DNA from: a virus
Taxonomy: Duplodnaviria > Caudoviricetes
Length of the DNA: 57,878 nucleotides
Direction: 5' to 3' (one strand)
Virus record (IMG/VR): IMGVR_UViG_3300043178_000021
Span: 1-57,878 of that record
Part shown: piece after piece, positions 1 through 20,132 of the stretch
Numbering within the stretch: the first letter of the stretch is position 1
Layout of the letters: each line of letters starts with the position of its first letter
Program-made: the position numbers and the translations under genes
Notes under the pieces: generated by a model
Database searches by the model: none
What the model saw: only the letters and a program-made list of their open reading frames with translations
Told to the model about the DNA's origin: nothing

Positions 1-243
1 CGCCTCCAGGCGGAGGCGGATAGACTTGTCCCTGGGCTGCACGAAATCCGCAGGCAGATTCGGGCGATCGATCCGAACCTGAGCGGCATGGAGTGAGATG
101 GACTACGTCGCCGAGCATGCGCCGAAGTACCCTGGGGTAGACCCGGACTTTGTGCGCGCCATCATCCAGAAGGAGTCTGGCGGAAATCCGCGCGCCACCA
201 ACCTGGAGGCTGCCTCTGTTGGCGGCGCGCATGGCCTTGGGCA
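1..243. repeat. Terminal direct repeat / circular overlap, left copy
   Basis: 1-243 matches 57636-57878 except at 79, 81, 135 and 136. Confidence 0.97.
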
Positions 244-3200
244 GTTCATCCCTCAGACCGCCTACAGCCTGCACATAGACCCCTACGACCCCAATCAGGC
301 GGTCGAGGGCATCTATCGGCTCGCCGCCGAGAGTCTGAAGCGAAACCAGGGCGACTACCGAAAGGTGGCGATGGAGCACTTCGGTGGCACCAACCCGGAG
401 AACCACGGCCCCAAGACGCTGGCCTACGCCGACGATGTCCTGAACATCTGGGGCGCCCTCACCGCATCCAAGCGCGTCCGCGCGACCCCGGTGAAGCGCC
501 TGGATGCGCCAGTTGTCGCGGACGCGAGCGCTGCGACAGATGCCGGTGTATCAGGCGTTGCGACAGATGCGATAGATGCGACAGCACTGGGCCAGTTCTG
601 GACAGTTCAGGCGGTGCCTGTGCGCCGCCCAAGGACCGCCGTAGGCGCTGCGGTTGATGTCGGCACAGATATCCTCAAGGGGCTCAAGGTTGGCCTGGAC
701 GTTGCCGCACTGGATGTCCGAGAGGCGATCAGCCAGATTCCTGGCGTCGGGCCGACAATCGTGTCTACGCTCGACTACGCCGACCAGCTCACCACCGGGA
801 GAAAGAGCGAGGACATCCTCAAGCAGGACATGGAGGCGATAACAAAGCGACTCTCGCCTTCCGCTGGCTACGCGATGTCGAAAGACTGGTGGGACTCCGA
901 GCGCGGCACGTTCGGGCCAGCCTGGAGCGACCCCAGGGCCTACATGATGGGCCTGACGGTCTCCGCTCCCGAGACGGTGATGACCATGCTGCCGGCCATG
1001 CGGCTGGCGCAGGCGGCGCACGCCGGGATGCTGGCGGCTGGGATGAGTCAGGCGCGCGCCGCGGCGCTGGCGGTGAACACAGCGACCGTTGCCGGCGCGG
1101 TCCTCGAGGGCTCTCTTGGCGGGGCGTCTGCGGCGCGCGACGTGCGCGACACAATCCTCAAGGTGCCGGAGGCGGACTTACAGCAGTCAGAGGCGTACAA
1201 GGCGCTGCGTAGGACCATGCCGCATGAGCAGGCGCTCGCTTCGCTTGCTGATGACCAGGCTACCAAGGCTTTCCTCATGGCCGGGGTCGCCACAGGGGCA
1301 TTCGGCGGCATGGGCGATCGCTTGCTGGCGAAAATCTACTTGGGCGAGGTCAAGAAAGGGTTGATCGGTCGCGCGGTCGCTGGTGGCGTTGCCGAGGGAT
1401 TCCTGGAGGAGTTCCCGCAGAGCGGCCTGTCCAAGATGGCGGAGAACGTCGCCACGCAGCCGGTGCGTCCGGTACCGCTTACCGAGGGCGTCCTGAACGA
1501 AGCCCTTGGTGGACTGGCGGTCGGAACTCCGATGGGCGCTGGGGTCGGCGCACTGGCGCGCGGACCTGAACGCGACCGCGCGCAGCCCATTCCCGCCCAG
1601 GATGTTCCGGGGATGACGCCTGCGCCCGGTCCCGCTCGGCCCGAAGCGCCGCCGCCGATCATCCAGGGGCCGGCCGCCGGCGCCACTGTGCGCAGCAAGC
1701 AGCGCATGACCGAGGGCGCGACGCCCACCCAGACGACGCTTGAGCCTGCGTTGCTCGGCAAGGAGTCAGAAATTCAGCTTCCGTCCGGGGCCAAGGTCGG
1801 CGTGCAGTACGCGATCGTGGATGCCGAGAAACTTGTCACGTCGCATGCGGACGACTTGAGCGAGCGCCCTGATTTCCCCGCCGCGCTGCAACCCAGGGTT
1901 AGGGATCGCGCCGGATACGCCATCCAGCTTGCCACGATGCAGCGACAGTTCAACCCGGAATTCCTTGGTGAGAGCCCCACTGCCGAGCAGGGCGCGCCGA
2001 TCGTTGGCGCGGATGCCATCGTGGAGTCCGGCAATGGACGCATGATCGTGCTGCGCCGCATTTTGCAGAAGGACCAGGAAAAGGCGACCAAATACTGGAA
2101 TTGGGTGGCCGCAAAGGCGGAGCAATTCGGCTTCGACAAGCAGGAGCTGGCGCAGGCCCTGGTGGGCACCAACAAGCCGGTCCTGGTGCGACTGCGCACT
2201 ACCGACGTGAACCGGGCGGAATTCGTGCGGCAAGCCAACGTCTCCAACCTGGCCCGCATGTCGGCGTTCGAGCAGGCGCTCTCGGACGCCAAGCTGGTGA
2301 ACATGGATGCCCTGCAGATCCGCCAGGACGGCGGGTTTGCTGTTGGAGAAAACCGCAGCTTTATCCGCCAGTTCATGTCTCAGCTTCCTCCGGTGGAGCA
2401 GGCCGAGCTGGTTGACGAAGCTGGTGTGCTGTCGCAGGCCGGCTTCGTCCGCGTGCGCAACGCGATCCTGGCCAACGCCTACGGCTCGACCGCGTTGCTC
2501 ACCCGCATGACTGAGACGATGGAGGATGGCGGCCGGAACCTGATCCGCGCGCTGTTCACCGCCGCCCCTACGGTCGCCAAGGCAAGAGCCGGCCTGAGCG
2601 AGAAGCAGAAGGCCCTGGACATCACGGAGCAGATCCTGGCCGCGGTGGGGGAGTTCGCCTCCATCCAGGCCAAGGGCATGAGCGTCAAGGAGTTCCTGGG
2701 GCAGCAGCAGCTCCTGGGCAAGCTCGATCCCATCATCGAGGACCTGCTTCGGTTCCTCGCCGACAACACGCGCAACCCGGGTCGCATTGCGCAGTTCATC
2801 ATGGCCTACATGGACGCCCTTTCGGCCTTGCCACCGGAAGAACAAGGCGCGCTGTTCGCGCCGGAGCCCGTCACTCGCGAGCAGTTGCTGACCAAGGCAG
2901 GTCTGGAGGTGTCACGTGAAACAGTCCAATCTGAAGGTGCCCAAGACGGTGCGCTCGCCGGCGGAGCCAGACTCGGGGGCGGTGCTGAAGCTGGTTCGCA
3001 GCCTGCAGCGAAGCCCGAGCCTACAGGCGCTGGCGCGCAAGGCGCTGGGAAGCCTGCCGAGCCGGTCGATCAGGCGCGGCCCGCCGGGGACATAGACAAG
3101 GAGGTCCAAAGTGCCACTCAAGAAGGGAAGCAGCCGGAAGGTGGTGGGTCAGAACGTGTCGGAGATGCTGAAGGAGTGCGCCCCGGGCGGGGACCAGAAG

Positions 3201-3448
3201 ATCGGGAACGTCCCGTGCGGGAACCGGAAGCACGCCCGGAAGGTGGCGGTGGCCGCGGCGCTGAACAAGGCGGGAAAGAGCCCGCGGTAAGCGGTAAGGA
3301 TCTCTCGAAAATCTACGTCACCGTGAAGGTGATCGAGGGCGAAACCGGCAAGCTGGCGAACCTTCGCATGAAGGCCGACGAAGCAATCGCGGACATCGAT
3401 CAACGACTCACCAAAGCCATCGAGATGTGGGAATGCCTAAAGTCGTAG
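98..3448 (+). CDS. Virion ejection/polyvalent protein: N-terminal lytic transglycosylase (SLT) plus DdrB-like ParB domain
   Basis: RAIIQKESGGNPRA...GAHGLGQFIP SLT motifs; LQPRVRDR...GAPIVGADAIVESGNGR ddrB-ParB signature; on the circle it follows the ejection genes. Confidence 0.85.
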   Translation: MDYVAEHAPKYPGVDPDFVRAIIQKESGGNPRATNLEAASVGGAHGLGQFIPQTAYSLHIDPYDPNQAVEGIYRLAAESLKRNQGDYRKVAMEHFGGTNPENHGPKTLAYADDVLNIWGALTASKRVRATPVKRLDAPVVADASAATDAGVSGVATDAIDATALGQFWTVQAVPVRRPRTAVGAAVDVGTDILKGLKVGLDVAALDVREAISQIPGVGPTIVSTLDYADQLTTGRKSEDILKQDMEAITKRLSPSAGYAMSKDWWDSERGTFGPAWSDPRAYMMGLTVSAPETVMTMLPAMRLAQAAHAGMLAAGMSQARAAALAVNTATVAGAVLEGSLGGASAARDVRDTILKVPEADLQQSEAYKALRRTMPHEQALASLADDQATKAFLMAGVATGAFGGMGDRLLAKIYLGEVKKGLIGRAVAGGVAEGFLEEFPQSGLSKMAENVATQPVRPVPLTEGVLNEALGGLAVGTPMGAGVGALARGPERDRAQPIPAQDVPGMTPAPGPARPEAPPPIIQGPAAGATVRSKQRMTEGATPTQTTLEPALLGKESEIQLPSGAKVGVQYAIVDAEKLVTSHADDLSERPDFPAALQPRVRDRAGYAIQLATMQRQFNPEFLGESPTAEQGAPIVGADAIVESGNGRMIVLRRILQKDQEKATKYWNWVAAKAEQFGFDKQELAQALVGTNKPVLVRLRTTDVNRAEFVRQANVSNLARMSAFEQALSDAKLVNMDALQIRQDGGFAVGENRSFIRQFMSQLPPVEQAELVDEAGVLSQAGFVRVRNAILANAYGSTALLTRMTETMEDGGRNLIRALFTAAPTVAKARAGLSEKQKALDITEQILAAVGEFASIQAKGMSVKEFLGQQQLLGKLDPIIEDLLRFLADNTRNPGRIAQFIMAYMDALSALPPEEQGALFAPEPVTREQLLTKAGLEVSRETVQSEGAQDGALAGGARLGGGAEAGSQPAAKPEPTGAGAQGAGKPAEPVDQARPAGDIDKEVQSATQEGKQPEGGGSERVGDAEGVRPGRGPEDRERPVREPEARPEGGGGRGAEQGGKEPAVSGKDLSKIYVTVKVIEGETGKLANLRMKADEAIADIDQRLTKAIEMWECLKS
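2916..3095 (+). CDS. Nested +1-frame small basic protein (59 aa, MKQSNLKVPKTVRSP...)
   Basis: GGAGGT at 2905-2910, GTG at 2916, TAG at 3093-3095; the host frame turns G/A/P-rich here. Confidence 0.55.
   Translation: MKQSNLKVPKTVRSPAEPDSGAVLKLVRSLQRSPSLQALARKALGSLPSRSIRRGPPGT
3111..3290 (+). CDS. Nested +1-frame small basic protein, DUF6496-like (59 aa, MPLKKGSSRKVVGQNVSEMLKE...KVAVAAALNKAGKSPR)
   Basis: Perfect SD AAGGAGGT at 3098-3105, GTG at 3111, TAA at 3288-3290; resembles the common phage MPLKKGxS...AVAIALxKAGK family. Confidence 0.75.
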   Translation: MPLKKGSSRKVVGQNVSEMLKECAPGGDQKIGNVPCGNRKHARKVAVAAALNKAGKSPR

Positions 3449-3771
3449 ACAATGCGCGGCTCGCGCGGATGGCCGAGCTTGGGATGGCGGCCTACGAGGG
3501 CGGCCAGAAGATTGCGGCCCTGCCAAGCAGCAAGGACGTGGTCGATCAGTTGCGCGCAATCGCCATGTCGCTGTCCGCCGCGAATGCGAAGCAGGCGGAA
3601 ATCTTGGGCGCGCAACTCGCCGCGCTGGCTGAGGTAGTCAAGTCTCTTGTCGAGCGCAAGGAGACGGAGCGGGCAGATCCTGAGTACGAATTCGAGATAG
3701 TCGAGCGCGACAGCCACGGCAGGGGAAAGAGGATGATTGCGCGACCGATGAGAGGGGGAGATGACGCATGA
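3433..3771 (+). CDS. Hypothetical protein
   Basis: Coupled ORF with a coiled-coil and a FEIVERD.. C-terminus. Confidence 0.7.
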   Translation: MPKVVDNARLARMAELGMAAYEGGQKIAALPSSKDVVDQLRAIAMSLSAANAKQAEILGAQLAALAEVVKSLVERKETERADPEYEFEIVERDSHGRGKRMIARPMRGGDDA

Positions 3772-4166
3772 GTGAGAAAACCGAGAGCAGGCAGGTATGG
3801 TTCCCGGACTCCAACCGGATCGGCAAGTTCAACCTGCTTTCCGAGGTATTGCACGACGGAACGCAGCGACCGATGCTGCAGGCGCTGTTTGGCCTGTGCC
3901 GCATCCTCGAGGTCATCGACCACGAGTCAGGGCGTGGCAAGACCTACATCGCGGCGAGCGATCTGTTCCAGCCGCTCGCCGAGGGCGAGGAGATTCCCGA
4001 GTACCGAATCGAGATGGCGTGCAACATGCCGTTCGAGGACCCCAAACGTGAGACCGCGCGCATCAATAGCGGCTCGTTCGGTTTCGTGGCGATTCGCAAC
4101 ATCATCGTGCGCGTGCCGCCGATTCAGATGCGCATCAACGTCGCGGCTCCGGCAATAATCAGATAG
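3768..4166 (+). CDS. Hypothetical protein
   Basis: ATGA overlap, SD, typical codon usage. Confidence 0.75.
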   Translation: MSEKTESRQVWFPDSNRIGKFNLLSEVLHDGTQRPMLQALFGLCRILEVIDHESGRGKTYIAASDLFQPLAEGEEIPEYRIEMACNMPFEDPKRETARINSGSFGFVAIRNIIVRVPPIQMRINVAAPAIIR

Positions 4167-4988: not shown

Positions 4989-5049
4989 TGACGAGCCAGA
5001 CGAAACGCAATCCTCCGCTGCGCCCGCCACCACTCAAAGGACGATGACC

Positions 5050-5469
5050 ATGATCTCTCTCACCTGGCTTCTTCGCATTCTGCTGGCCTCGCTGATCGTG
5101 CTGGCCGGCATGGCGCAGCAAGCGAACGCGGCACAAGTCACCTTCGCTTGGGACACGCCCACCGACAAGACCGGCATAGTCGGTTACTTCCTGGGCTGCG
5201 GGCCTTCCGCCGGCAACCACGGCACGCCCGTCAAGCAGCCGGGGGCGAACACCTCGACAGGCACGCTCAACCTCGCGCCAGGCACCTGGTATTGCGCGGT
5301 GTGGAGCTATGGGACCCCTGACACGTTCGTGTCGGCGAAGTCTAACGAGCCGCAGGTGCCAGTGCCGCTCGGCAAGCCGGACAACCTTCGCGTTACCATC
5401 ACGCTTACCTGGGATCCGGAGCGTGGTGTGTTTGTGGCGAAGGCCGGGCCGGTGCGCGGGATCGAGTAG
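5050..5469 (+). CDS. Signal-peptide-bearing fibronectin type III-like protein
   Basis: Hydrophobic N-terminus ending ANA/A; VTFAWD...GY...GTWYCAVWSY...SNE FN3 pattern; SD AAGGA. Confidence 0.7.
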   Translation: MISLTWLLRILLASLIVLAGMAQQANAAQVTFAWDTPTDKTGIVGYFLGCGPSAGNHGTPVKQPGANTSTGTLNLAPGTWYCAVWSYGTPDTFVSAKSNEPQVPVPLGKPDNLRVTITLTWDPERGVFVAKAGPVRGIE

Positions 5470-5825: not shown

Positions 5826-6909
5826 GCGCGACTACGTCGAGCCGATTCCGCGCGGCGTGTACACTGTCGGTAGGCATGCCACGCCAGCGCTCGACGTGGA
5901 CGACGATGTCACGCACGTGACCGTGTCGCTGTTGCGCGCCGCATGGCCGAACATCGGCGCCGAGGTGATACGCGTCCCCATCGAGTGCAGCGTCGATGGC
6001 GGCCCCTGGCGCAAGTCGGGCGCGGTCGCGGCTGCGGGCGGCGATCACTATCACCGCTACGGCTTTCTGATGCCGGCCACCACAGCGCGCTTGCGCCTGC
6101 CGCGCGGCGTTGGGCGCCAAGTGCGCGCGCAGATTGATGTCCATGCCGCGCTGGAAATTAAGCTCGACGTGGGACTGCGCATCGCGCCGCTGCCACAGGA
6201 ATCTGGCAGCCACAACTCGGCGGCATTCCTGGCCGAAAACGGCGCCACGGGCACCGCGCTGACATCGCTCACCAGCGGATCGTTCGACGGGAGTGGATCG
6301 GACCGCGCTATTGTGGCAATCATCGGCAACGGGACTTTCGCTGGCGGCGCAGTGGTCTCGAGCTGTACTTGGGATGTGCCCTCACCGCAGTCGCTTTCCA
6401 GCCTGGTGACTGTCACCGGCGGGCCCTATCATCGCTGTTCGGCGTGGGGCTTGGCGAACACCACCAGCGCCACCGACACGGTCACCGCCAACTGGGCGAG
6501 CACCCAGGACGAGGCGCTCATTATCGGGCACGCATTCACGGGCGTGGACACTGCCTCGGCTTTCGGTGATACGCAAAGCGGCGCGGGCACCGCGGCAGAG
6601 CCGAGCGCGACGCTGACCGGCGTGGTGTCCGACGATCTGTGCCTGGACGGCGTGCTGATAGAGACATCGGCCTCGGCGAGCCAGGGCGCGGATCGGACGC
6701 TGCGTGGTGACGAGAATCTGGGCGGGGCCTATCCGCACCACTTGGTGAGTTCGACACAGTCTGGCTCCGCAGGCGGCGTAATGACCTGGACGGTCACAGG
6801 CTCGCCGCAGTGGACACATGTCGCCGTGGTTATCAAGGGCATTACGTGGGTGGCGCAGCAGAACGCGCCAGAAACACTTCGCGTTCACGCGGGCGCACTG
6901 AGGTGGTGA
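5818..6909 (+). CDS. Putative virion accessory/beta-sandwich protein
   Basis: T/S/G-rich beta-strand C-terminal domain within a structural block. Confidence 0.6.
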   Translation: MPERDYVEPIPRGVYTVGRHATPALDVDDDVTHVTVSLLRAAWPNIGAEVIRVPIECSVDGGPWRKSGAVAAAGGDHYHRYGFLMPATTARLRLPRGVGRQVRAQIDVHAALEIKLDVGLRIAPLPQESGSHNSAAFLAENGATGTALTSLTSGSFDGSGSDRAIVAIIGNGTFAGGAVVSSCTWDVPSPQSLSSLVTVTGGPYHRCSAWGLANTTSATDTVTANWASTQDEALIIGHAFTGVDTASAFGDTQSGAGTAAEPSATLTGVVSDDLCLDGVLIETSASASQGADRTLRGDENLGGAYPHHLVSSTQSGSAGGVMTWTVTGSPQWTHVAVVIKGITWVAQQNAPETLRVHAGALRW

Positions 6910-8488: not shown

Positions 8489-9309
8489 CGCAGTACGTCC
8501 GCTGGCCGAATTGGGCGCGCGGGTGGACGCAGCCGCGCCGCGTATCGCGGAACGTAGGTGGCCTGACGCCGACTAGCGGCACGACCGTCAGCGCGCCAGT
8601 CGTCACGCACACCTATACCGGCCAAGCGCCCCAGGTACGCGCCCGTGTGCAGCCGGCGCAGGTACCCCACACCTACACCGCGCAGGCTCCGCAGTTCGTC
8701 TACACCGTTCGCCCCGCGCAGGTCACGCACACCTACGTCGCGCAGGCGCCGCAGGTTCGAGCCAAGGTCCAGCCTGGGGTCGTAACTCACACCTACACGG
8801 CACAGACTCCGCAGGTCAGGGCGAGGGTGCAGCCTGGCCAGGTAACGCACACCTACAGCGCGATCGCCCCGCAGGTACAGGCCCGCGTACAGCCGGGCGT
8901 GGTGACGCACACGTACACGGCGGTCGCGCCGAAGTTCGGCGCCACACTCCGGGTTGGGATCGTTACCCACACCTACACCGCCGTCGCCCCGCAGGCGCAG
9001 GCCAGGGTGCAGGTGCCGGTTGTCGCGCATACATACCTGGGGCAAATCCCGGGCGTCCAAGCCGGCAACACCGTCATGGTGCCGACTGCCGCGCATACCT
9101 ACGGGGCGCTGACGCCAGACATCATTGCGCAAGCCGAGGCCCCGTCTCAACCGGCCTCGCCAAGGGGCGGTGGTGGTGGTAGCCTGATCTCCCTGGATCG
9201 CTTTAGGAAGCGCGCCGCCGAAGATGCCCAGAGGGTCACTGACGACCAGGATAGCGATGATCTAATGCTCGCAGCGATGGCGTTCACAATTCTACGGAGG
9301 GCCGCCTGA
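8485..9309 (+). CDS. Repeat-containing fibre-like protein (20-aa VTHTYTAQAPQVRARVQPGV repeats)
   Basis: Eight units at an exact 60-bp period plus a ninth diverged unit. Confidence 0.75.
   Translation: MTQYVRWPNWARGWTQPRRVSRNVGGLTPTSGTTVSAPVVTHTYTGQAPQVRARVQPAQVPHTYTAQAPQFVYTVRPAQVTHTYVAQAPQVRAKVQPGVVTHTYTAQTPQVRARVQPGQVTHTYSAIAPQVQARVQPGVVTHTYTAVAPKFGATLRVGIVTHTYTAVAPQAQARVQVPVVAHTYLGQIPGVQAGNTVMVPTAAHTYGALTPDIIAQAEAPSQPASPRGGGGGSLISLDRFRKRAAEDAQRVTDDQDSDDLMLAAMAFTILRRAA
8599..9120 (+). repeat. Coding tandem repeat, 60-bp period
   Basis: Units start at 8602, 8662, 8722, 8782, 8842, 8902, 8962 and 9022 and differ mostly at synonymous sites. Confidence 0.9.
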
Positions 9310-12300
9310 TGGCCGGGCTTTCTGCGTGTCTTAAAAAAATCGGTCTTGAAAAACACGAGGCGGCGATCCTCAAGGGGCTTGCCAGAGACAAGCTCGACGA
9401 GGGCCTCGAGGGGCATGCTGCAGCCGAGCAGGCCGTGCGCGAATACATCGAGACGCTGCTGACCGAGCGCGCCGACATCGCGCGCCAAGTGTTGCGCGCC
9501 GGCGGGGTCATGCCGGAGGAGCCGAGCGTTCCAGACCTTGGAACGGTGGATGCGTCCGCGCACGATGCCGCGTCTTCGCCCCGCAACCAAGAGCCCGAGC
9601 CCACCCCGGAACAAAAAAAGGCGGGGAACTACAAGAAGGGGCATGTGCGGGTGGCCGGGCTCGACGTGGCGATCGAGACCCCCGCCGGATCGTGGCGCTG
9701 GAGTTACGATCTGGAGCGCATCGCTCAGGTAGCCAAGTTGCTCGAAAGCAAGGATCTGACGGTCAACGAGAACACTGCGCGCAACGAGATCACCATCGCG
9801 CTCGAGAAATTCCGTCTCGGCGAGCCGATGGACGGCGCGCACTCCCTAGCCGCGGCCGAGCGCGGTCTGCGCCGAAACTTCCCGGCGCTGGCCGAAGTGA
9901 TCGAGAACATTCTGGACCGTGGCTGGCGCATCAAAATGGCCTCCCACTACGGCTACGTCAAGCGCACCGTTGGAAAGGACGGCGACCAGGTCGATGTCTT
10001 CGTCCGCGTGGGTACGCCGCTCGACTATGACGGGCCGGTGTTCGTGGTCGATCAGCAGAAGGGCAACGGGCATCTCGACGAGCACAAGATCATGCTCGGC
10101 TGGACGGATGTCGATGCCGCCAGGAAAGCCTACCTGGACAACTACGAGAGGGGCTGGGGCGGACTCAAGAACATCACGGAGTGGACGCTGCCGCAGCTCA
10201 AGCAGTGGCTGGCCGGCGGGGATCTGGAGCGCCCGGCGATCGAGGCAGCGGCGCCCCTCACCCCGGCCGAGGAGATCGCCAGCCGGTTCCTCATGGGCAA
10301 GGGTTTCGAGTCAATCGGTGAGGCGCGGGAGGTGGTCGGCAAACTCATCGGGAAGGACATCAAGCCGGGGACTCCGGAAGCGAAACTCGCCGATGAGATC
10401 ATCGAGCTGGGGGCGGTCCTGGCGGCGCGAGACATTGTGCGCGCGCCTGTGTCAGCGAGACAGGCATACGGCCACCTGGTCCATCTGTACGAGGAGTTGA
10501 TGCCGGCGCTCTACGTGCGCACTTCTGGCTCGATCGAACGGCAGGCGTACTCTACTCCGCTGCCATTGGCGTTTGTCGCTTCTGAGTTGGCCGAGATCGA
10601 CGCATTCAAGTCGGTCTACGAGCCAACCGCCGGCAACGGCGCGCTGCTGATCGCCGCGAACCCGGACAGCAAGGGCACCGAGGTCAACGAGATCGACCCG
10701 CAGCGCGCAGCGGCGCTCGCGGCGCAGGGCTTCAAGCCACAGAGCTACGACGCAACCGAGCGCGGCGCAGCATGGCCCGGGAAGGACGTGGTGATCGCCA
10801 ACCCGCCGTTTGGCGTCACACGCGATAAGAAGGGCAAGACGCGCAGCTTCGACATGGGCGGCGGGTACGTGACCAACGAGGTCGATCACGTCATTGCGCT
10901 CAAGTCTCTGGGCTCGATGAAGGATGACGGCAGGGCGGTGCTCATCATCGGCAGCGTGAATATGCTGGCGAAGACACCGGAGGCGCGTTCGGACGCCTAC
11001 CACGCCAAGGCGAAACGCGAGTTCTTCTTTACACTCTACAACAAGTACCGGGTGGTGGACCACTTCACCGTGTCGGGCGATCTGTACGCCAAGCAGGGCG
11101 CTGCGTGGCCGGTAGACGTGATCGTCATCCGCGGCAAGGGCAAGTCAACCTTGCCGCTTCCGGCGGTCAGTCCGCCGAGGCAATATACTTCCTGGGAGCA
11201 GCTTGCGGAGATCTTCGATGCCGACTACCAAAATCGCCTGGGCACCGCCGCCCAGGGAGACGTACCTGAACCCGGTGGAGAATCTACAGGGACGACTGGG
11301 GGCGGTGCGCCTGGAGGCGGGGGAGCCGCTGGACCAAGACAGCTACTTTCTGGCGCTGGCGGAGCGACTCAGCCGGGGGATGGAGGAGCTGGAGCCCGAG
11401 GAGGTCGAGGAGATGCAGGAGTATCTCACCGCGGAGGGACTGCTTCCGGCGCGCCTGGTGCTCGAGGAGGGGGACGACCGCGCACTGGTGTGGATGCAGA
11501 GCCCGGAGCTGCGCCGCCGCCTGCTGATGCTGGGGGTGCCGGGGCCGGACTTGCCGGAGCGGGCGCCCCTCAAGAGCAGCCCGAGGGCGGAGGCGCTGCT
11601 GGCGGAGTTGACGCCGCTTCAGTGGGTGGGCCTGCTGCTCTACCACCCTCCGGACGACCAGTAAGCGCGGAGGCCGACGCCCAAGCCGCCCAAGACCTGC
11701 AGGACGCCCTGGGCGAGCTAGCGGACATTTTCGGGAAGAAAGGCCGCCTCAACATCACGCCGGAGCAGGAGCAGCGGCTGCTGCCGGTACTGACGAAGCT
11801 CTTTGACGCAGCGTTTCGCCGCGGTTACCACAAGTTTAGGGAGGCGGCGCGCTACGTCCTGAATGCCGTGCGGCAGGCATTGGGGGCCGTCGCTGATCTG
11901 ATCTCCCTGGAGCACCTGCAGGGAGCCTACATTGCCATGTCTGCCCGCTACCGCTCCCAGGGGGCGGAGGCCGCGAAGGATGTGATCGCTGTGCAGGCGC
12001 TCGCCGAGATCGAGCCGCCTCCAACGCCGCCCGAGAAGAGCTTGAGGGACCGCCAGGCCGAATCCGAAACCGAGCATCAAGTCATGTATGAGCCGGCCAG
12101 CACCGCGGCTGGCCTTGGCACGCTCATCCCGGCCAACCTCAAGACGGTCACCAAAGACGCGCTGCGGGCGCTCGTGCGCGCCGTGGGCGACATCGACGAG
12201 TTCGTTATGTCCAAGCTCGGATGGACGCGCGAGCAGTTGACGGCGCGCCTCGGGGCCGAGCAGGTGGATGCGCTGGCGCTGGCGCTTTACAACTTCGACA

Positions 12301-15300
12301 AGGGCTCCGGTGTCATCATTGGCGACCAGACAGGCATCGGCAAGGGGCGCGTGGTAGCGAGCATTATCGCCTACGCGCTCAAGGAAAAGCTCGTCCCGAT
12401 CTTCGTTACGGAGAAGCCGAATCTCTATGCGGATATCTACCGCGACCTGAAGGCAGTCGGCTTGGGCAAAGTGCGCATGTTGATGACCAACGCAGGTCAG
12501 GACGTGCCGATGGATGATGGAGCCTGGGCGCTGCGCGCGCCGCCACTGGCGAAGCACAACGCCACGATGGACGCGCTCATGCGCGCCGGGAAGCTATCCG
12601 GCTACGACGTGATCCTCACGACGTACAACCAGATGCAGACCATCAAGGGCGGCGAGCGCACCCTGCGCATGAACTTCCTCGAGCAGTTCGCCAAGGGCGG
12701 CGTGGTGATCTTCGACGAGTCGCACAACGCCGGCGGAACCGACGCCCCCAAGAGGGGCGAAGAAACGTCCGGCAAAACTGGAAGGGCAGGATTTGCGCGG
12801 TCGATCGCAGCGGTCGCGCGCGGGGTCATATATTCCTCGGCCACTTACGCCAAGCACCCGAGCGTGATGGATCTGTACTTCAGAACCGACATGCGCCTGG
12901 CGGTGGAGAAGATCGAGGATCTGCCTGGAGCGATTGCGGCCGGCGGCGTGCCGTTGCAGCAAGTGGTGGCGACCATGCTCGGCGCGGCCGGGCAATACAT
13001 CCGCCGCGAACGATCGTTCTCTGGCGTGCGTTACGATGTCGTGGAAATCGCGGTAGACAAGGAGGTCGCGCAGCGCGCGGCGCTACTACTGCGCGAGATC
13101 AACGACTTCGAGCGCAAATTTATCCGGCCGGCAATTAGAAACATCAAAGCCGATGCCAAGGCGGCGGCCGGATCGGCGCAAACCGTAGGGCCGCAGATTA
13201 CCAGCACGTCGTTTGGCCAGATCATGCACAACCTGATTGACCAGACGCTGCTGCAAATGAAGGTGGTAGCGGCCACACAGAAAGCCTTGGAAGCGCTGAA
13301 AGCGGACCAGAAGGTAGTGCTCACGGTTGCCAACACGATGGGATCGTTCATCGAGGAACACATCGCGCAGACGAATATCCACGCTGGCGACGCGATCCGC
13401 ATGGGCGTTGCAGACCTGTTCGCGCGATACCTGCAAAAGACGCGCCGGTATGTCTACAAAGCGCCGTTCCAGAAGGGTCAGGGGGTGACGCTCTACACCT
13501 CCGACGAGCAGCTTGGGCAGCTGGGCGTGCGCGCCTTCGAGCGCGTGCTGAAGATGATCCGAGACAGCGAAGAGCTGTTCTCCGACATCCCACTTTCTCC
13601 CATCGACTACATGCGTGCGGAGCTGCGCAGGGCCGGGTACAAAGTCGAGGAGATCACGGGGCGCGCGACGTACCTGGAGTATCACGCAGACGGGACTGTA
13701 ACCTACGAGATCCGGCCGCCGAAGGAAACCAGCATTGCCGGGCGCGTGGATGCGGTTCGGCGATTCAACAGCGGCGAGGCGAGCGTCATCATCCTCAACC
13801 AGGCTGGCGCTACCGGCCTGTCCTTGCACGCGAGCGAAACCTTCGCGGACAAGCGACAGCGCCACATGATGATCGTGCAGGCCGAGAAGAACATCGACAC
13901 CCACATGCAGATGCTCGGGCGCATCCATCGCACCGGGCAGGTGGTGGTCCCACAGTACAGTCAGCTTGCGGCCGACATCCCGGCCGAGCAGCGTCCTGCC
14001 GCCGTTCTTGCGAAGAAGATGGCGAGCCTGAACGCGAATACTACGGCGAGCCGGCGCTCCGCCGTCACTGCAGAGGCCGTCGATTTCATGAACGCATACG
14101 GCGACGAGGCCGCCGCGCGCGTCATGTGGGACAACCAGGATGCCCATGACTTGATCGGCAGCCCACTGAAAATCAATGACGATGGAGATGGGTTCGTTAC
14201 CGAGGACGCGATCACGAAAGTGACTGGGCATATTCCTCTCCTGGACCTTGACCAACAGCGCGCGATCTACGATCTCATTGTCCAGGCATACCGGGATAGG
14301 GTGGAGCTGGCCGACGCGATGGGCGAGAACGTACTGGAAGCAAAAACGCTGCCGCTGGATGCCAGGACCATCAACAAGACGATGATTTTCGAGGGGCGCG
14401 GAGGGGATAGTCCGTTTTCACAACCGGCCTACGCCGAGCGCATGGACGTCAAGAAGATCGGCAAGCCCTACATGCCGGAGCAGGTGACGCAAATGGTGCG
14501 CGTCGCGCTGGGTGTGCCGGCGAGTGACCAGAGTATCTTTGAGTTGGCGGACTTGGCCGAGCAAAATGCTCAAAAGATGCTTAGAGAAACGCGCGAGCGA
14601 CTCACGAAATTCATGGAGGAGAAGATCCTTCAGGCAACGACGGCGCCTGGGGAGGCCGGTATGCCCGTTCCGGTGAAGCTGACTCCAGACGACGAGAACG
14701 CAATTACGGGCTTCCGATTGCTTCAGGAGCGCAACGCTAGATTGGTCCAGGAGTTGCTGACCAACTACCGCATTGGCACCCACGTCGAGTTGCATGGCCT
14801 ATGGGGAAGCATCCCAGGGATCGTCATCGACATCGAGCACAACACGCGCACGCACAATCCTGTGGCTCTTGGGGCGTGGAAACTCAAGGTTGCGGTGCCC
14901 GATGCAATCCGACAACTGAAGATCGGCCTGAACGATTTGGCGATGGGCGCTTCGGATGCCCCGCAAAGGGGGGTTGGCATCCAGCCCTATGCTGGCGACG
15001 ACCCGGTGCTGCCCATGTTCACCGCCGCGCAATCGGTCACGCGCGAAGAACGCACCGTGATGACCGGGAACCTGCTGGCGGCGTTCGGCAAGTTCCAGGG
15101 TGGACAGGTGGCGATGTTCACCGACAACACCGGAGCCATTCGGCAGGGCGTGGTGATGCCGGCGCGCTTCAATATCGGCGAGGCCATCAGCAAGCAGCCC
15201 GTGGAGTTCACAACGCCGGAGCAGGTCATAACCTTCATTGGCCGCTCCGCCACCAAGGTGTTCGCATCCAACGGCTTGATCGGGATCGAGCCCTACCGCA

Positions 15301-18300
15301 GCGGATACCGCATTATGGTTGCCCCGAGGAAGGGGGACGGCGGTCGGTACTACCTAGATCAGGAAATGCGCGCCGCCACCGGAGACTTCACAAAGGTCGG
15401 GCAGTGGATGCGCGCGCAGGTAAATGAGCGAGAAGCCGCGCTTGCGCTGCGCAGGGCAATGGAGCTGGGTGCGCAGTTCCAGGCGACCTCCAACAAGGAC
15501 GTTGCCCTGGATGTGACAGGTCAGAAGCGCGTGGAGCAGGTGCGCGCGCTCTATGGCGAGCAGTTTCTGGTAGAGGCAACGCGCGGGCATTATAGAAAGG
15601 GGGCAAGGCCAGATGCGACACCAGCCATCGAAGACAGTGCCGTTCAAGGGGTGCTCGATCTATATCGCGCCGGGGAAACTGCGCCTGTGCCAGTGGGTGA
15701 TCGTGGATGGCAGCCCAAAGTACGCTACCTCGCCCAAGGCATCGCGGAGCGCATCGCGGTCGCCGGCGCGGAGGAGATCCGCGGGCAGGTGATTCGTAAC
15801 GCGCACGACCTGGCGGCCATCATGCAGCTCTACCGCGATCCGCGGTTCGAGACGATGCGCTGGGTGTTCACGCGCGAAGGAAAGGCGGTCGGGCATGTTG
15901 GCGTGAGTGCGCGCCTGCCGAGCGTCGCGCCCGGCTTCCCGATGGGGGTCGAGCCCTTACAGTGGCTAAAGGAGCAGGTCGAGGCGACGGGGGCCGATGC
16001 CGTGTGGTCGGTACACAATCATCCAAGCGGCAATCCAGAGCCTAGCCCCGCCGATCAGGGCCTGCAGCGCCACATCGCACGCATGCTTGCACAGGTGAGC
16101 CAGGAGCTAGGGCGCGAAGTCAAGGCGATGCCGCACGTCGTCATCGACACCAACAGCTATGCGGTGATCGAGAACACCGGCCAGTGGATCATCCACAGGC
16201 GCAAGTTCGGGGACGAACATCTCCTGGTTGCCTCCATCGACCACGAGATACTCGGCACCCAGGTGCGGCAGCCGGAGGATGTCGCCAGGGTCGGCCGGCG
16301 CTTCAAGCGCCAGGGCTGGGTCACGCTGATTGCGGCGACGGTTCCGCCGTATCCCGCAACGACCCGCGTTACGCAGGTGCGCGCAGTGGCGGAGGTGCCG
16401 GAGGCGGTGCTGTTGAGCGCGCGTGGCGGGGCCGCGATTCGCCGCTTCGCCAGACAGACCGGCGCGATGCATGTCTTCGCCGCAGGCTTTTCCGCAGAAA
16501 ACTTCGACTATTTCACGCAGCTCACCGCGGACGGCTTTCTGTTGGACGCCGTGGATGAGCAGGGAATCCCGACGCTGTCCAGGCTGATGGCCCCCAGCGA
16601 CAAGTTCTTCGGGGCAGATGTTCCGCACGCGCGCGCCGTCGCGCAGGCGAAGAAGTTGCGCGCGTTCGGCATCCCGGCCGATGCGGCGTTCATTTACGGC
16701 GACACCAGCACCACCGGCCTGAAGATGCACCCGGACTATGCGGATGCGAAGGAAGGGGACTTCATGGCCGCCGCTAGGTTGGCGGAGGACATGGTCACGA
16801 GCGACATCATCGAGCGCGTGGAGGGACTGGGGCCCGTCATCTTTGCGCCCGTCTCCGCTTCCGAGCGCAGGGCCACCAACAGGATCCCGGGCGCGATGGC
16901 GGCCTATCTGGCGAAGCGCACCGGGAACAAGCACGCGGTCGGGCGCATCGCACAAAGCTCGCGCGCGTCGCACACCGGCGCGACGCTGATGGATCGCATG
17001 CTCTCGCCGGCAACCTTCTCGGGCAAGGTCGAGGAGGGCGGGCGCTACGTGCTAGTGGACGACGTTGTAACGTCCGGGGCGACGCTCGCGAACTTGGCCG
17101 ATTTCATTCAGGCGAACGGCGCCCAGGTAGTGGGCATCGTCACCTTGTCCAACATGACGCGCGGCAGTAGAATTGCCGCTGACCCCGCGCAACTCGGGGA
17201 CGTGGAGGCGAAGCATGGGAGCACAATCCAAGAGCTTTTTGCGATCGACCACTCCGCCCTCACGGCAGTCGAGGCCGACTACCTCCTCCGATTCCGATCT
17301 GCTGACACCCTCCGAGCTCGAGCGGCTGAAGCGCGGCGAACAAGAGGCGGCCATCTACTACGAGAGCCGCTGGGCGAATACGGGGCCGACGAAGCCGGCC
17401 CAATCGTAGAGTCCGAGCGGCTGACCGAGCCGCTGTTCGCGCACATCTACACGCCGGAGGAGCGCGCCGCCGCGACGGCGATCCTCGGCAAGCGCGTGCG
17501 CGAGTCTATCAGCAACCGGCTGTTCCGTGTCCCGGTGCAGGCCCTTGGTATCGACCGCCGGCTGCGCGCCGGCATCGACCTGGTACTCGAAAAGACGTGG
17601 GGATTGCTGCCAGAAAAGGCGCAGGAGCGGCTGGCCGCCGGGTTGGTATCCGACTACTGGCTCGATGAGGGCGTGGTGGATCGCCGCGCTCTGATGTATT
17701 CGGCCATCCGCCGCGGCTATCGCGGCATCGAGGAGGCCCTGCTGTCCCTGGGCAACCTCACCAGGGCAGAGTCCCGAGTAGCCTACGAGTGGATGAACGC
17801 CGACCACCCGCAGGCGGCGGACTACTTCATGCAGCAGCTCTCCGACGAGAGCATCGCGGCGCTCACCAGGGTGATGCAGGCGATCGACCGCTTGAGCGGA
17901 GAGGCGGTGCGCCTGGGCCAGCTTGGCGCGGATACCTACGAGCGGAATCGGTTCGCCTACCTGCGCCGGTCCTACGAGAGCTACGTCCTGGAGGCCACCC
18001 CGCAACAGAAGGCCATGATGGCGCGCGCCAAGCAGATCCTCGGGGATCAGTACAAGGGTCGCGGCATTTCCTACAAGGTGGACGCCTCCGACCTGTCGGC
18101 CACAGACCCTACCTGGTGGGGCAGGAAGGCGCAGGCGGGCCGCGCCGACTTGGGTCTGATGGGCGAGAAGTTCCTGCGCCTGGAGCGGCGTGCGGCCGCT
18201 CCTGGGGCCGGAGCGGGAATCCTTGAGGGGATGGAGGGCGGCGAGGAACGACCGGGGAGGCTTCTCGAGGTCAAATACTGGCCGGCTGAGGTGCCGGTGC

Positions 18301-20132
18301 CGCTTCGCCTACAGTCCTGGCAGCAGGACCGGCACACCTGGGAGGTCCGCAACGTAGAGCGCGGCAAGGTCAGCCTGTGGCGCGACTTCACGAAGGAGGA
18401 GCGCGAGCGCATGGGCGAGATCGATGAGGTCCGCTTCGCCATCGCGCGCACCCTGCAGCAGATGATCCATGATGTCGAGGTTGGCCGATACCTGGAGTGG
18501 CTCGCCAATACCCATGCCCTGCCGGAGCCGCCCGCAGGGGCGGTGACAGTCGAGGCGGCCGAGACGCTGCGCCAGACCTATACCCCGAAGGAGTGGGTCA
18601 AGGTGCCGTCTACCGAGATCCTGAAGACCGGGGGGGTCAAGAAGTACGGAAAGCTCGCTGGCCTGTGGGTGCCGGGCCCGATATGGAATGACGTGCGGCA
18701 GACCGTGAGCATGCGCTACGAGCCCCTGGGCCGCGCCTACGCGACGATCCTGAGGGCCTGGAAGATCAGCAAGACCGCGCTCTCCCCCGCGGTACACATG
18801 AACAACGTGATGGCCAACGTCATCATGGCCGACTGGCATGACGTGTCTCCCCGCCACGTCCTGCTCGCGCTCGAGATCATGCTGCGCGACAAGCCAGAAC
18901 ACCAACTGATCATGCAGAAGTTCGAGGACTCCGGCGCCATGCAGGGGATGTATGTCCTGTCGGAGGTGCAGAAGGAGCAGTTACGCCCGCTCATGGACCA
19001 ACTGCGCGAGGCAGTCCAGGAGGCTGAGGGCACATCTGCCTGGGTACAGATGGGTAACGTCGTGTCGATGATCGCGCACGGCAGGCTCCGGGAGGCCGTT
19101 GCGGCCGCTCGGCAAAGCGCCGCCACCGGGGTGGTGCGTTGGCCGGTCGCCAAGATGATGGCGCTCTACGAGGCGGAAGACACGGTGTTCCGCCTGGCCG
19201 CCTTCCTCAAGGCAAAGTCAGATGGGGCGGACGACATTGTGGCCGGTCGGGTCGCGCGGGATAGCTTCCTTAACTACGAAATCAATGCGCCGTGGATCAA
19301 CATCATGCGCAACACGGCGTTCCCGTTCATCGGGTTCACCTACCGCGCTATCCCGGAGCTGCTCAACGTGATACGCAACAAGCCTTGGAAGCTCATGAAG
19401 CTCGCCACGATCTTGGGGGCGATCAATGCGCTCGGCGCGGCCTTGGCTGGCGCGGATGATGATGAGGAGCGCAAACTGCTGCCGGAGGAAAAAGCGGGGT
19501 GGATCTACGGCGCGCTCGGACCGAATCTGCTGCGCCTGCCGTGGAACGACGACTACGACGCCCCGATGTTTCTGGATGTGCGCCGGTTCATCCCGGCGGG
19601 AGACATCTTCGACATCGGGCAGACCAACGCGGCTTTCCCGCTCTTGCCGTTCCTGGTGCCCGGTGGGCCGCTCGGCATGCTCGCCGAGCTGCTCGCGAAC
19701 AAGGTGCAATTCACCGGAAAGCCGATCGTGGCGGACACGGACACGCCGCGCGAGCAAGCCGAGAAACTGCTGGCCTACGCTTATCGCTCCCTTGCGCCCA
19801 ACGCAGTGTGGGTGCCTGGGTCATACGCCTGGAACGCGCTGTTAACTGCCGGCCAGGGTAAGACGGACGTGTTTGGGCGCGAGCAAAGCGTGGGCATGGC
19901 GGTTGCCTCCGGCTTCGGTCTGAAGGTCGCCGCCTATCCGAAGGACGTGGGGCTCTACAACGCCAACTCCAAGCGTGAAGCTCAGGTGCGCGAGATTCGC
20001 GAGCAGATCGGGAAACTCAAGCGCGAATACTCGCGCCGCGGGCTCACCGACGAGGAGTTCGAGGCGGGGCTGCAATACCAGCTCGAGAAGCTGGAGCGCG
20101 TCAACCAGGAGTACCTGGAGAAGCTAGACTGA
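9309..20132 (+). CDS. Giant DarB-like polyvalent protein: iPPase-like, N6-adenine DNA MTase, Strawberry-notch SF2 helicase, RadC/JAB, PRTase, helical C-terminal domain
   Basis: YGYVKRTVGKDGDQVDVF/DEHK (iPPase-like); YSTP, YEPTAGNG, ANPPFG (MTase); GDQTGIGKGR, FDESHN, QMLGRIHRTGQ (SBNO helicase); HNHPSGNPEPSPAD (JAB); LVDDVVTSGATL (PRTase). Confidence 0.92.
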   Translation: MAGLSACLKKIGLEKHEAAILKGLARDKLDEGLEGHAAAEQAVREYIETLLTERADIARQVLRAGGVMPEEPSVPDLGTVDASAHDAASSPRNQEPEPTPEQKKAGNYKKGHVRVAGLDVAIETPAGSWRWSYDLERIAQVAKLLESKDLTVNENTARNEITIALEKFRLGEPMDGAHSLAAAERGLRRNFPALAEVIENILDRGWRIKMASHYGYVKRTVGKDGDQVDVFVRVGTPLDYDGPVFVVDQQKGNGHLDEHKIMLGWTDVDAARKAYLDNYERGWGGLKNITEWTLPQLKQWLAGGDLERPAIEAAAPLTPAEEIASRFLMGKGFESIGEAREVVGKLIGKDIKPGTPEAKLADEIIELGAVLAARDIVRAPVSARQAYGHLVHLYEELMPALYVRTSGSIERQAYSTPLPLAFVASELAEIDAFKSVYEPTAGNGALLIAANPDSKGTEVNEIDPQRAAALAAQGFKPQSYDATERGAAWPGKDVVIANPPFGVTRDKKGKTRSFDMGGGYVTNEVDHVIALKSLGSMKDDGRAVLIIGSVNMLAKTPEARSDAYHAKAKREFFFTLYNKYRVVDHFTVSGDLYAKQGAAWPVDVIVIRGKGKSTLPLPAVSPPRQYTSWEQLAEIFDADYQNRLGTAAQGDVPEPGGESTGTTGGGAPGGGGAAGPRQLLSGAGGATQPGDGGAGARGGRGDAGVSHRGGTASGAPGARGGGRPRTGVDAEPGAAPPPADAGGAGAGLAGAGAPQEQPEGGGAAGGVDAASVGGPAALPPSGRPVSAEADAQAAQDLQDALGELADIFGKKGRLNITPEQEQRLLPVLTKLFDAAFRRGYHKFREAARYVLNAVRQALGAVADLISLEHLQGAYIAMSARYRSQGAEAAKDVIAVQALAEIEPPPTPPEKSLRDRQAESETEHQVMYEPASTAAGLGTLIPANLKTVTKDALRALVRAVGDIDEFVMSKLGWTREQLTARLGAEQVDALALALYNFDKGSGVIIGDQTGIGKGRVVASIIAYALKEKLVPIFVTEKPNLYADIYRDLKAVGLGKVRMLMTNAGQDVPMDDGAWALRAPPLAKHNATMDALMRAGKLSGYDVILTTYNQMQTIKGGERTLRMNFLEQFAKGGVVIFDESHNAGGTDAPKRGEETSGKTGRAGFARSIAAVARGVIYSSATYAKHPSVMDLYFRTDMRLAVEKIEDLPGAIAAGGVPLQQVVATMLGAAGQYIRRERSFSGVRYDVVEIAVDKEVAQRAALLLREINDFERKFIRPAIRNIKADAKAAAGSAQTVGPQITSTSFGQIMHNLIDQTLLQMKVVAATQKALEALKADQKVVLTVANTMGSFIEEHIAQTNIHAGDAIRMGVADLFARYLQKTRRYVYKAPFQKGQGVTLYTSDEQLGQLGVRAFERVLKMIRDSEELFSDIPLSPIDYMRAELRRAGYKVEEITGRATYLEYHADGTVTYEIRPPKETSIAGRVDAVRRFNSGEASVIILNQAGATGLSLHASETFADKRQRHMMIVQAEKNIDTHMQMLGRIHRTGQVVVPQYSQLAADIPAEQRPAAVLAKKMASLNANTTASRRSAVTAEAVDFMNAYGDEAAARVMWDNQDAHDLIGSPLKINDDGDGFVTEDAITKVTGHIPLLDLDQQRAIYDLIVQAYRDRVELADAMGENVLEAKTLPLDARTINKTMIFEGRGGDSPFSQPAYAERMDVKKIGKPYMPEQVTQMVRVALGVPASDQSIFELADLAEQNAQKMLRETRERLTKFMEEKILQATTAPGEAGMPVPVKLTPDDENAITGFRLLQERNARLVQELLTNYRIGTHVELHGLWGSIPGIVIDIEHNTRTHNPVALGAWKLKVAVPDAIRQLKIGLNDLAMGASDAPQRGVGIQPYAGDDPVLPMFTAAQSVTREERTVMTGNLLAAFGKFQGGQVAMFTDNTGAIRQGVVMPARFNIGEAISKQPVEFTTPEQVITFIGRSATKVFASNGLIGIEPYRSGYRIMVAPRKGDGGRYYLDQEMRAATGDFTKVGQWMRAQVNEREAALALRRAMELGAQFQATSNKDVALDVTGQKRVEQVRALYGEQFLVEATRGHYRKGARPDATPAIEDSAVQGVLDLYRAGETAPVPVGDRGWQPKVRYLAQGIAERIAVAGAEEIRGQVIRNAHDLAAIMQLYRDPRFETMRWVFTREGKAVGHVGVSARLPSVAPGFPMGVEPLQWLKEQVEATGADAVWSVHNHPSGNPEPSPADQGLQRHIARMLAQVSQELGREVKAMPHVVIDTNSYAVIENTGQWIIHRRKFGDEHLLVASIDHEILGTQVRQPEDVARVGRRFKRQGWVTLIAATVPPYPATTRVTQVRAVAEVPEAVLLSARGGAAIRRFARQTGAMHVFAAGFSAENFDYFTQLTADGFLLDAVDEQGIPTLSRLMAPSDKFFGADVPHARAVAQAKKLRAFGIPADAAFIYGDTSTTGLKMHPDYADAKEGDFMAAARLAEDMVTSDIIERVEGLGPVIFAPVSASERRATNRIPGAMAAYLAKRTGNKHAVGRIAQSSRASHTGATLMDRMLSPATFSGKVEEGGRYVLVDDVVTSGATLANLADFIQANGAQVVGIVTLSNMTRGSRIAADPAQLGDVEAKHGSTIQELFAIDHSALTAVEADYLLRFRSADTLRARAAEARRTRGGHLLREPLGEYGADEAGPIVESERLTEPLFAHIYTPEERAAATAILGKRVRESISNRLFRVPVQALGIDRRLRAGIDLVLEKTWGLLPEKAQERLAAGLVSDYWLDEGVVDRRALMYSAIRRGYRGIEEALLSLGNLTRAESRVAYEWMNADHPQAADYFMQQLSDESIAALTRVMQAIDRLSGEAVRLGQLGADTYERNRFAYLRRSYESYVLEATPQQKAMMARAKQILGDQYKGRGISYKVDASDLSATDPTWWGRKAQAGRADLGLMGEKFLRLERRAAAPGAGAGILEGMEGGEERPGRLLEVKYWPAEVPVPLRLQSWQQDRHTWEVRNVERGKVSLWRDFTKEERERMGEIDEVRFAIARTLQQMIHDVEVGRYLEWLANTHALPEPPAGAVTVEAAETLRQTYTPKEWVKVPSTEILKTGGVKKYGKLAGLWVPGPIWNDVRQTVSMRYEPLGRAYATILRAWKISKTALSPAVHMNNVMANVIMADWHDVSPRHVLLALEIMLRDKPEHQLIMQKFEDSGAMQGMYVLSEVQKEQLRPLMDQLREAVQEAEGTSAWVQMGNVVSMIAHGRLREAVAAARQSAATGVVRWPVAKMMALYEAEDTVFRLAAFLKAKSDGADDIVAGRVARDSFLNYEINAPWINIMRNTAFPFIGFTYRAIPELLNVIRNKPWKLMKLATILGAINALGAALAGADDDEERKLLPEEKAGWIYGALGPNLLRLPWNDDYDAPMFLDVRRFIPAGDIFDIGQTNAAFPLLPFLVPGGPLGMLAELLANKVQFTGKPIVADTDTPREQAEKLLAYAYRSLAPNAVWVPGSYAWNALLTAGQGKTDVFGREQSVGMAVASGFGLKVAAYPKDVGLYNANSKREAQVREIREQIGKLKREYSRRGLTDEEFEAGLQYQLEKLERVNQEYLEKLD
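11218..11664 (+). CDS. Nested +1-frame acidic, Leu-rich protein (148 aa)
   Basis: GGAG at 11207-11210, ATG at 11218; G/C-ending codons and a globular-looking sequence in this frame, while the host frame is a Gly/Ala linker with A/T-ending codons. Confidence 0.75.
   Translation: MPTTKIAWAPPPRETYLNPVENLQGRLGAVRLEAGEPLDQDSYFLALAERLSRGMEELEPEEVEEMQEYLTAEGLLPARLVLEEGDDRALVWMQSPELRRRLLMLGVPGPDLPERAPLKSSPRAEALLAELTPLQWVGLLLYHPPDDQ
15613..15792 (+). CDS. Possible nested +1-frame peptide (59 aa, MRHQPSKTVPFKGCSIYIAPGK...)
   Basis: AAGGGGG SD-like site at 15597-15603; lies in the linker between the helicase region and RadC. Confidence 0.35.
   Translation: MRHQPSKTVPFKGCSIYIAPGKLRLCQWVIVDGSPKYATSPKASRSASRSPARRRSAGR
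17215..17409 (+). CDS. Possible nested +1-frame peptide (64 aa, ...SDLLTPSELERLKRGEQEAAIYY...)
   Basis: GGAGG at 17204-17208, ATG at 17215; at the end of the PRTase region. Confidence 0.4.
   Translation: MGAQSKSFLRSTTPPSRQSRPTTSSDSDLLTPSELERLKRGEQEAAIYYESRWANTGPTKPAQS

Follow-up and report, generated by a model that had tools for sequence, protein, structure and literature searches.

Within the complete virus record IMGVR_UViG_3300043178_000021 (IMG/VR; Caudoviricetes; 57,878 bp, 64% GC), which we analyzed over its whole length and refer to as the window, a 59-codon open reading frame (ORF) lies embedded in a different reading frame of a 1,116-codon gene for a large virion protein. Sequence comparisons assign this small ORF to the phrog_2423 family and make it probable that it is a real gene, that it is translated separately from its host gene, and that it is older than the linker-coding frame that overprints it. 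The features concerned are the following:

98..3448, plus strand: host gene for a 1116-codon protein of the internal-virion or polyvalent type, with SLT at residues 8-88 and ddrB-ParB at residues 563-700; its frame (frame 0) runs across the small gene
about 2930..3292, plus strand: low-complexity linker in the host frame, rich in Gly/Ala/Pro/Glu/Arg; in its second half (3111-3290) it is encoded by the same nucleotides as the small gene
3093..3095, plus strand: TAG stop in the frame of the small gene, five codons ahead of its GTG, and end of the ORF 2916..3095
3098..3105, plus strand: Shine-Dalgarno (SD) sequence AAGGAGGT, 5 nt (CCAAA) ahead of the GTG
3111..3290, plus strand: embedded 59-codon gene with GTG start and TAA at 3288-3290, predicted to encode a small basic two-helix protein, the long form of phrog_2423
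3293..3448, plus strand: 51-residue C-terminal tail of the host protein, without an SD-led start of its own, and in frame in a relative despite a 24-nt indel

According to the ORF listing, the small ORF is made up of GTG 3111-3113, 58 sense codons and TAA 3288-3290. It lies on the same strand as 98..3448 and wholly inside it, in the +1 frame [(3111-98) mod 3 = 1]. A preliminary description of this DNA, made from the letters alone, had named a perfect SD sequence, a 5-nt spacer, a GTG and a 59-aa peptide; we found all of them where it had placed them, and the peptide in the ORF list is identical to the one it gave. The SD sequence AAGGAGGT occurs three times in the 57,878-bp genome compared to 0.72 copies expected, a number that was reached in 6 of 100 shuffles, and only the copy at 3098 leads into a start codon and an ORF. 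The plus-strand copy at 13059 was considered as a gene start and rejected, since no start codon stands behind it and it encodes Asp-Lys-Glu-Val inside a 3,607-codon ORF. The match at 3098 was also the longest at any of the 34 gene starts inspected; a GGAG-type motif was present at about half of the 32 ordinary gene starts. No promoter-like site was found within 2500-3900. Translation of the small ORF most probably starts from its own SD sequence and GTG.

An internal SD sequence near the shift site stimulates +1 frameshifting in prfB. The SD sequence at 3098 could likewise move ribosomes of the host gene into the small frame by a programmed +1 shift, which is the direction required here, and thereby yield a truncated host protein with the small domain at its C terminus. 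We consider this highly improbable. Because of the TAG at 3093-3095, a frameshift well upstream cannot simply fuse the two frames, and any shift would be confined to within 15 nt. In the other nested cases described below, the upstream in-frame stop precedes the start codon by 2 to 64 codons. Moreover, the 5-nt distance between SD sequence and start codon is an initiation spacing, and a Met is found at the same position in every member of the family, free-standing ones included.

The family itself was identified at two levels. A search of 5.8 billion proteins with the 59-aa peptide gave seven matches, all of them small proteins (41-65 aa), the best of which (E = 4e-8) covers 97% of the query at 58% identity. 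In addition, the peptide matched phrog_2423, a family of unassigned function, with E = 4.5e-5 and 24.4 bits, its residues 1-22 aligning with positions 1-22 of the 52-position profile, and all seven relatives tested matched the same profile (1.6e-20 to 8.7e-8). The relatives have in common the motif MPLKKGSS at the N terminus, a central Asn that does not vary and an Ala-rich helix, KQAVAxAL..AGKS, at the C terminus. The window peptide represents a long form, in which about 17 additional residues set the two helices apart, and it aligns over its full length with other long-form members. In an alignment of 40 sequences it retains 8 of 8 invariant and 9 of 11 nearly invariant columns, as a full-length member of the family should. 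The preliminary description had recognized a family of small basic phage proteins, which is borne out by the match at E = 4e-8 and by phrog_2423.

The same description had called the peptide DUF6496-like. This label does not hold for the peptide itself, which has no Pfam match at E <= 1 and hence stays below the gathering cutoff of DUF6496 (PF20106; 24 bits); its proper family is phrog_2423. The label does apply to 2 of 12 relatives (29.6 and 24.8 bits), which reach DUF6496 through the C-terminal helix alone (profile positions 35-58); the other 10 gave no match. The likeness to DUF6496 is thus in the C-terminal helix motif, whereas the N-terminal motif lies outside the match. One nearby ESM Atlas cluster carries DUF6496 on 17% of its members, and the neighboring clusters consist of viral hypothetical proteins. 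An AlphaFold2 model of the small protein (pLDDT 77.6) has helices at residues 9-22 and 39-53, and the predicted second helix resembles that of DUF6496. A fold match in the PDB was not obtained at E <= 0.001. An Arc repressor variant came up in a profile search as a possible PDB relative, with a best E of 0.013 over 16 residues, and was rejected as a chance match. Viral fold matches were uncharacterized phage proteins, for example one of Ralstonia phage RSB1. Searching GenBank phages with the peptide by tblastn gave one weak match.

We subsequently compared the surroundings of the relatives. The scans of viral, bacterial-genome and metagenome contigs yielded 240 loci, which are a sample; after removal of 17 duplicates, 223 distinct loci were left. 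At least 155 of 600, at least 467 of 600 and at least 268 of 596 scanned stretches contained relatives in the three scans, and the bacterial genome collection contributed only two loci. Among the 223 distinct loci listed, the small gene was found in these settings:

free-standing gene of <=100 codons: 176 of 223
N-terminal module of a longer protein: 20 of 223
inside an ORF of 1,108-2,813 codons: 14 of 223
under an open frame of 150-999 codons: 5 of 223
in a long upstream open frame, or without a start of its own: 5 of 223
running off the locus: 3 of 223

With 176 of the 223 loci in the first class, the expectation that homologues are usually separate genes was confirmed. In the commonest setting, represented by 38 of the loci listed, the small gene starts -12 to +30 nt from the end of an ORF of 740-830 codons, often with an 11-nt overlap. 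The three upstream ORFs of this size that were tested all proved to be portal proteins (phrog_1216), and SU10_portal was matched by 5 of 73 upstream neighbors in the first locus set. For the long form, the canonical setting (e.g., L093 3409-5938 and L097 2137-5466) is a portal gene of about 780-800 codons, then the small gene, which overlaps its end by 11 nt, and about 250 nt further on a GroES-like gene of about 155 codons; the single GroES-like gene tested gave a Cpn10 match. Among GenBank phages, the short form is present in 73 records, including 29 of Acinetobacter and 14 of Pseudomonas, and nearly all copies are annotated as hypothetical. The match in Burkholderia phage BcepB1A falls under a gene annotated as head maturation protease and that in Cronobacter phage A24 under a NUDIX protein, and one metagenomic copy is fused to DUF2213. 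In ten loci (L011, L028, L030, L051, L068, L073, L075, L077, L154, L160) the module heads proteins of 168-474 residues that share a His/Pro-rich core and a C-terminal motif; the one tested, that of L011, has no Pfam family.

The small gene of the window is not the only one that is nested in a giant phage gene. All 14 nested copies among the loci listed lie in the +1 frame of their host ORF, and all 14 start with ATG or GTG. Inspection of the 20 nt upstream showed a purine-rich SD-like motif in most of them, though not in every one. The restriction to the +1 frame may be partly forced, because most Leu codons would create a stop in the other frame where the conserved Leu-Lys pair is encoded. 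The hosts are heterogeneous. Those of L005 and L084 share 68% identity and, together with that of L119, carry LPD38 and/or ART-PolyVal. A loose family with 27-92% identity comprises the hosts of L134, L139, L141, L165, L171, L175, L177 and L203; the L195 host matches that of L203 only (46% over 381 residues), and in these nine hosts the nested gene has a similar position, at codons 761-925. The hosts of L042 and L216 stand apart from all others. Polyvalent-protein domains were found by Pfam in 3 of the 13 nested hosts scanned, and none of the 14 hosts resembles the host gene of the window. Unfused versions of the giant host genes were not found among the loci, nor did two nested-type queries find a nested copy in GenBank phages.

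In these other hosts, the substitution patterns could be measured. Between related hosts, dN/dS in the small frame was 0.06-0.63, whereas the same nucleotides read in the host frame gave a ratio of at least 1 in four closely related pairs. Host-frame dS was 0-0.08 inside the overlap vs 0.39-0.52 or more in the flanks. In sliding windows of 55 codons, the one over the nested gene was the least diverged of 385-537 in five of six giant-gene pairs and ranked 19 of 532 in the sixth, a closely related pair. The position of the hidden gene is conserved in host proteins whose identity has dropped to about 30%. Random synonymous recoding left the host frame open with P = 0.0017 (L042) and 0.032 (L005). 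Low divergence together with a spared small frame is the classical signature of a functional overlapping gene. On the tree of the family, which has too few columns to decide for or against a single origin, nesting requires five changes.

Some of the nested loci showed further peculiarities. In L042, the nested segment (5001-5153) has 55% GC vs 40% in the rest of the host ORF, which suggests either a cassette of foreign origin or strong codon constraint from dual coding. Between L134 and L139, near 6001-6183, the host proteins share 55% identity on the upstream side of the cassette and 26% on the downstream side, and the cassette itself differs by 11 nt; it may mark a recombination junction. 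In the hosts of L175 and L177, at about residues 821-908, the host frame matches MORN repeats just before or around the nested gene, a match that may be compositional.

For the window itself, several observations weigh against a functional small gene and leave room for a relic, that is, a small gene that the host ORF has engulfed and that is neither expressed nor required any more, which would stay open through the rarity of stops in high-GC DNA, only the host-frame linker being of importance. The window peptide is the most divergent member sampled, with the longest terminal branch (2.12) and an odd composition, and Ser34 and Gln45, two of the 11 nearly invariant positions, are replaced. Among RNA runs, none was found to contain the stretch. 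Neither Pfam nor NCBIfam recognizes it, and its PHROG match is limited to residues 1-22, a restriction that we attribute to the approximately 17 extra residues of the long form. In this 64% GC genome, random synonymous recoding leaves the host frame open over the whole small ORF, and thus both frames open, with a chance of 0.21; at about 1 in 5, the window alone yields no statistic for dual coding. Moreover, the only DNA-level relative shows no listed substitution in the small ORF, so that dN/dS is not computable for this phage, and the identical block in which the ORF lies (see below) could stem from recent recombination rather than from constraint. Nevertheless, we consider a relic unlikely, given the longest SD match of the 34 starts inspected at ideal spacing, the 8 invariant and 9 nearly invariant family residues that were kept, and the clear purifying selection on the same embedded gene in other lineages. 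Furthermore, the ORF, its start and a stop of its own are intact in a variant with about 9% divergence in the flanks.

This variant was the only relative found at the DNA level. Scans of viral and metagenome contigs with the host protein gave no close DNA relatives, and blastn against GenBank phages gave no match. Contigs X1 and X2, from two metagenome runs that are a possible source of the record, match the window exactly. The variant is found on contigs of two other, freshwater metagenome runs and encodes P0009, a protein of 1,134 aa with 86% identity to the host protein, which also reads through the region into the same tail. Of the 36 letters in which the variant contig (X3) differs, 34 are listed and two are unplaced. 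Twelve differences fall within 2875-3005, at host codon positions 6/3/3, and eight of them alter the host protein. A block of 269 nt without any listed difference follows (3006-3274), with flanks that are about 9% different; it extends from 105 nt upstream of the small gene, in the linker, to 16 nt before its stop. A dense patch at 3271-3301 contains insertions that sum to 24 nt, and four substitutions lie beyond it in the tail (3357-3395). The next gene (3462-3570) has 10 differences, 8 of them at third codon positions. Our reading of the indel patch by hand, which agrees with P0009, is that the host frame is kept and that the small ORF ends three codons earlier at a TAG of its own, with a different short basic tail. 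Both frames survive in a lineage with about 9% flank divergence. The identical block may reflect either dual constraint or a recent exchange.

The properties of the host gene bear on the question whether there is an overlap at all. Its product contains ddrB-ParB (Pfam, 9.6e-28) and an SLT lytic transglycosylase domain (4.6e-8), and its PHROG matches are a DarB-like antirestriction protein and an internal virion protein with endolysin domain. With ddrB-ParB, another enzymatic domain and a position in a virion gene module, it belongs to the polyvalent or internal virion proteins. The phage is podovirus-like, and the host gene stands among internal virion and structural genes; landmarks of the genome are the terminase (40728), portal (42223), major head protein (45344) and an internal virion protein (51172), and the 3,607-codon ORF mentioned above is a second giant DarB-like ORF (9309..20132, plus strand).

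One could argue that the SLT/DdrB gene ends upstream of the small ORF, that its apparent continuity is due to a chance lack of stops or to an assembly frameshift, and that the small gene is an ordinary one followed by another small gene. Indeed, similarity of the host protein to 118 other DdrB-ParB proteins stops at about residues 900-950, with some low-complexity alignments extending further. GC at the three codon positions of the host-frame linker is 0.88/0.69/0.60 and 0.92/0.63/0.47, i.e., GC3 (GC at third positions) falls to 0.47-0.60, and open host frames across the ORFs 2916..3095 and 3111..3290 have chances of 0.29 and 0.21, respectively. However, the host frame contains no stop codon between 98 and 3448, so that a ribosome cannot terminate earlier; X1 and X2 are identical to the window, and the diverged X3 is open as well, with indels that sum to 24 nt. 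The Gly/Ala/Pro linkers of this genome typically have a low GC3. The tail lacks an SD-led start by inspection, and a word-limited search found no free-standing homologue of its 51 residues. Therefore, we regard two separate genes as improbable, and favor a true overlap of the small gene with the host frame.

A second ORF precedes the small gene in the linker:

2916..3095, plus strand: second 59-codon ORF in the same +1 frame, with GGAGGT-N5-GTG as start; its TAG stands just before the SD sequence of the small gene

Its product has no family in Pfam, PHROG or NCBIfam, and an exhaustive search gave three matches, over short stretches of proteins of 1,297-1,924 residues with 33-36% identity. A hand count against the variant gave three synonymous and four non-synonymous changes, which is about neutral. 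High alternative-frame GC3 also arises in the Gly/Ala/Pro linker of the 3,607-codon ORF (11230-11680), and because an ordinary linker mimics the pattern, GC3 is no evidence of coding for 2916..3095. This other linker contains a 153-codon alternative-frame ORF (11203-11661, plus strand) with GC3 of 0.89 and no Pfam or PHROG family. On these grounds we rejected 2916..3095 as a second real nested gene for now, and the preliminary description, which had spoken of real nested ORFs in the plural, could not be followed on this point.

We propose that AAGGAGGT-N5-GTG would serve as an independent initiation site for the 59-residue protein on the late structural mRNA, and that for ribosomes already on the host gene the same 180 nt would encode a disordered Gly/Glu/Arg/Pro-rich linker, which would join the DdrB-ParB module to the 51-residue tail. 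The small gene would first have been free-standing in the head module and later have been covered by the host frame, either because a stop was lost and the frame was read through, or because a linker took up the cassette; either route could have led to the nesting. This order of events follows from the distribution of the two partners. The small family is widespread and mostly free-standing, whereas the linker and tail are confined to one lineage: among 120 DdrB-ParB homologues, the tail was present only in the window's own cluster and in P0009. The earlier suggestion that the small gene is older than the linker covering it is thus supported, as an inference, by the restriction of linker and tail to this phage and one close relative.

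With respect to function, a head- or portal-associated small basic protein is a tentative candidate, because free-standing copies overlap the end of the portal gene and because the module heads proteins annotated as head maturation protease or NUDIX hydrolase. A more speculative and rather doubtful idea is that phrog_2423 proteins are dedicated partners of giant ejected virion proteins, either as an adaptor or chaperone to the portal or capsid interior or as a brake in the producer cell, and that the embedding was selected by linked inheritance and expression. In addition, giant genes might swap their N- and C-terminal halves at the near-invariant 180-nt cassette, which would then act as a homology anchor.

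The closest known parallel is found in lambda, where the embedded part of Rz1 lies over a flexible, mutationally silent linker of Rz (PMC5295617, partial text). As in Rz/Rz1, a small gene with its own start signals lies wholly in the +1 frame of a larger phage gene on the same strand and over a linker of its host, an arrangement also found in the 14 other nested cases listed as far as the position inside the host ORF is concerned, and the family also exists separated from such hosts elsewhere. There are three differences. The small product here is a predicted hydrophilic basic two-helix protein and not a spanin: by inspection, its MPLKKGSS N terminus is hydrophilic and basic and shows neither the signal peptide nor the lipobox Cys of the o-spanin of a two-component system. 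The host is an ejected virion protein instead of a lysis protein. Finally, of the two partners it is the embedded gene that is widespread and probably older, the overlying host frame being restricted to one lineage. Compared to phrog_2423 in general, the window copy differs in being embedded instead of free-standing.

The host gene has its own precedent in the polyvalent proteins, for which a combination of ddrB-ParB with a peptidoglycan hydrolase was described in Acinetobacter prophages (Iyer et al. 2017, PMC5512222, partial text). Like these, it has ddrB-ParB and a peptidoglycan hydrolase domain and lies among virion genes. In contrast, hidden genes in linkers are not described in the searched text of that paper, in which 'overlap' and 'frameshift' have no uses and 'nested' refers to a hairpin fold. 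In the open-access papers searched, we found no mention of DUF6496 or of the N-terminal motif of the small protein, and nothing on the nested arrangement.

In gene calling, the 1,116-codon ORF is reported and the 59-codon gene inside it is lost, so that a conserved phage protein goes unannotated here and in at least 14 giant virion-protein genes. The arrangement is unusual among overlapping genes in that the embedded gene would be ancient and widespread and the reading of the long gene the newcomer. This suggests one way in which giant multi-domain phage proteins may gain linkers, namely from a small gene in another frame that is read through or captured.

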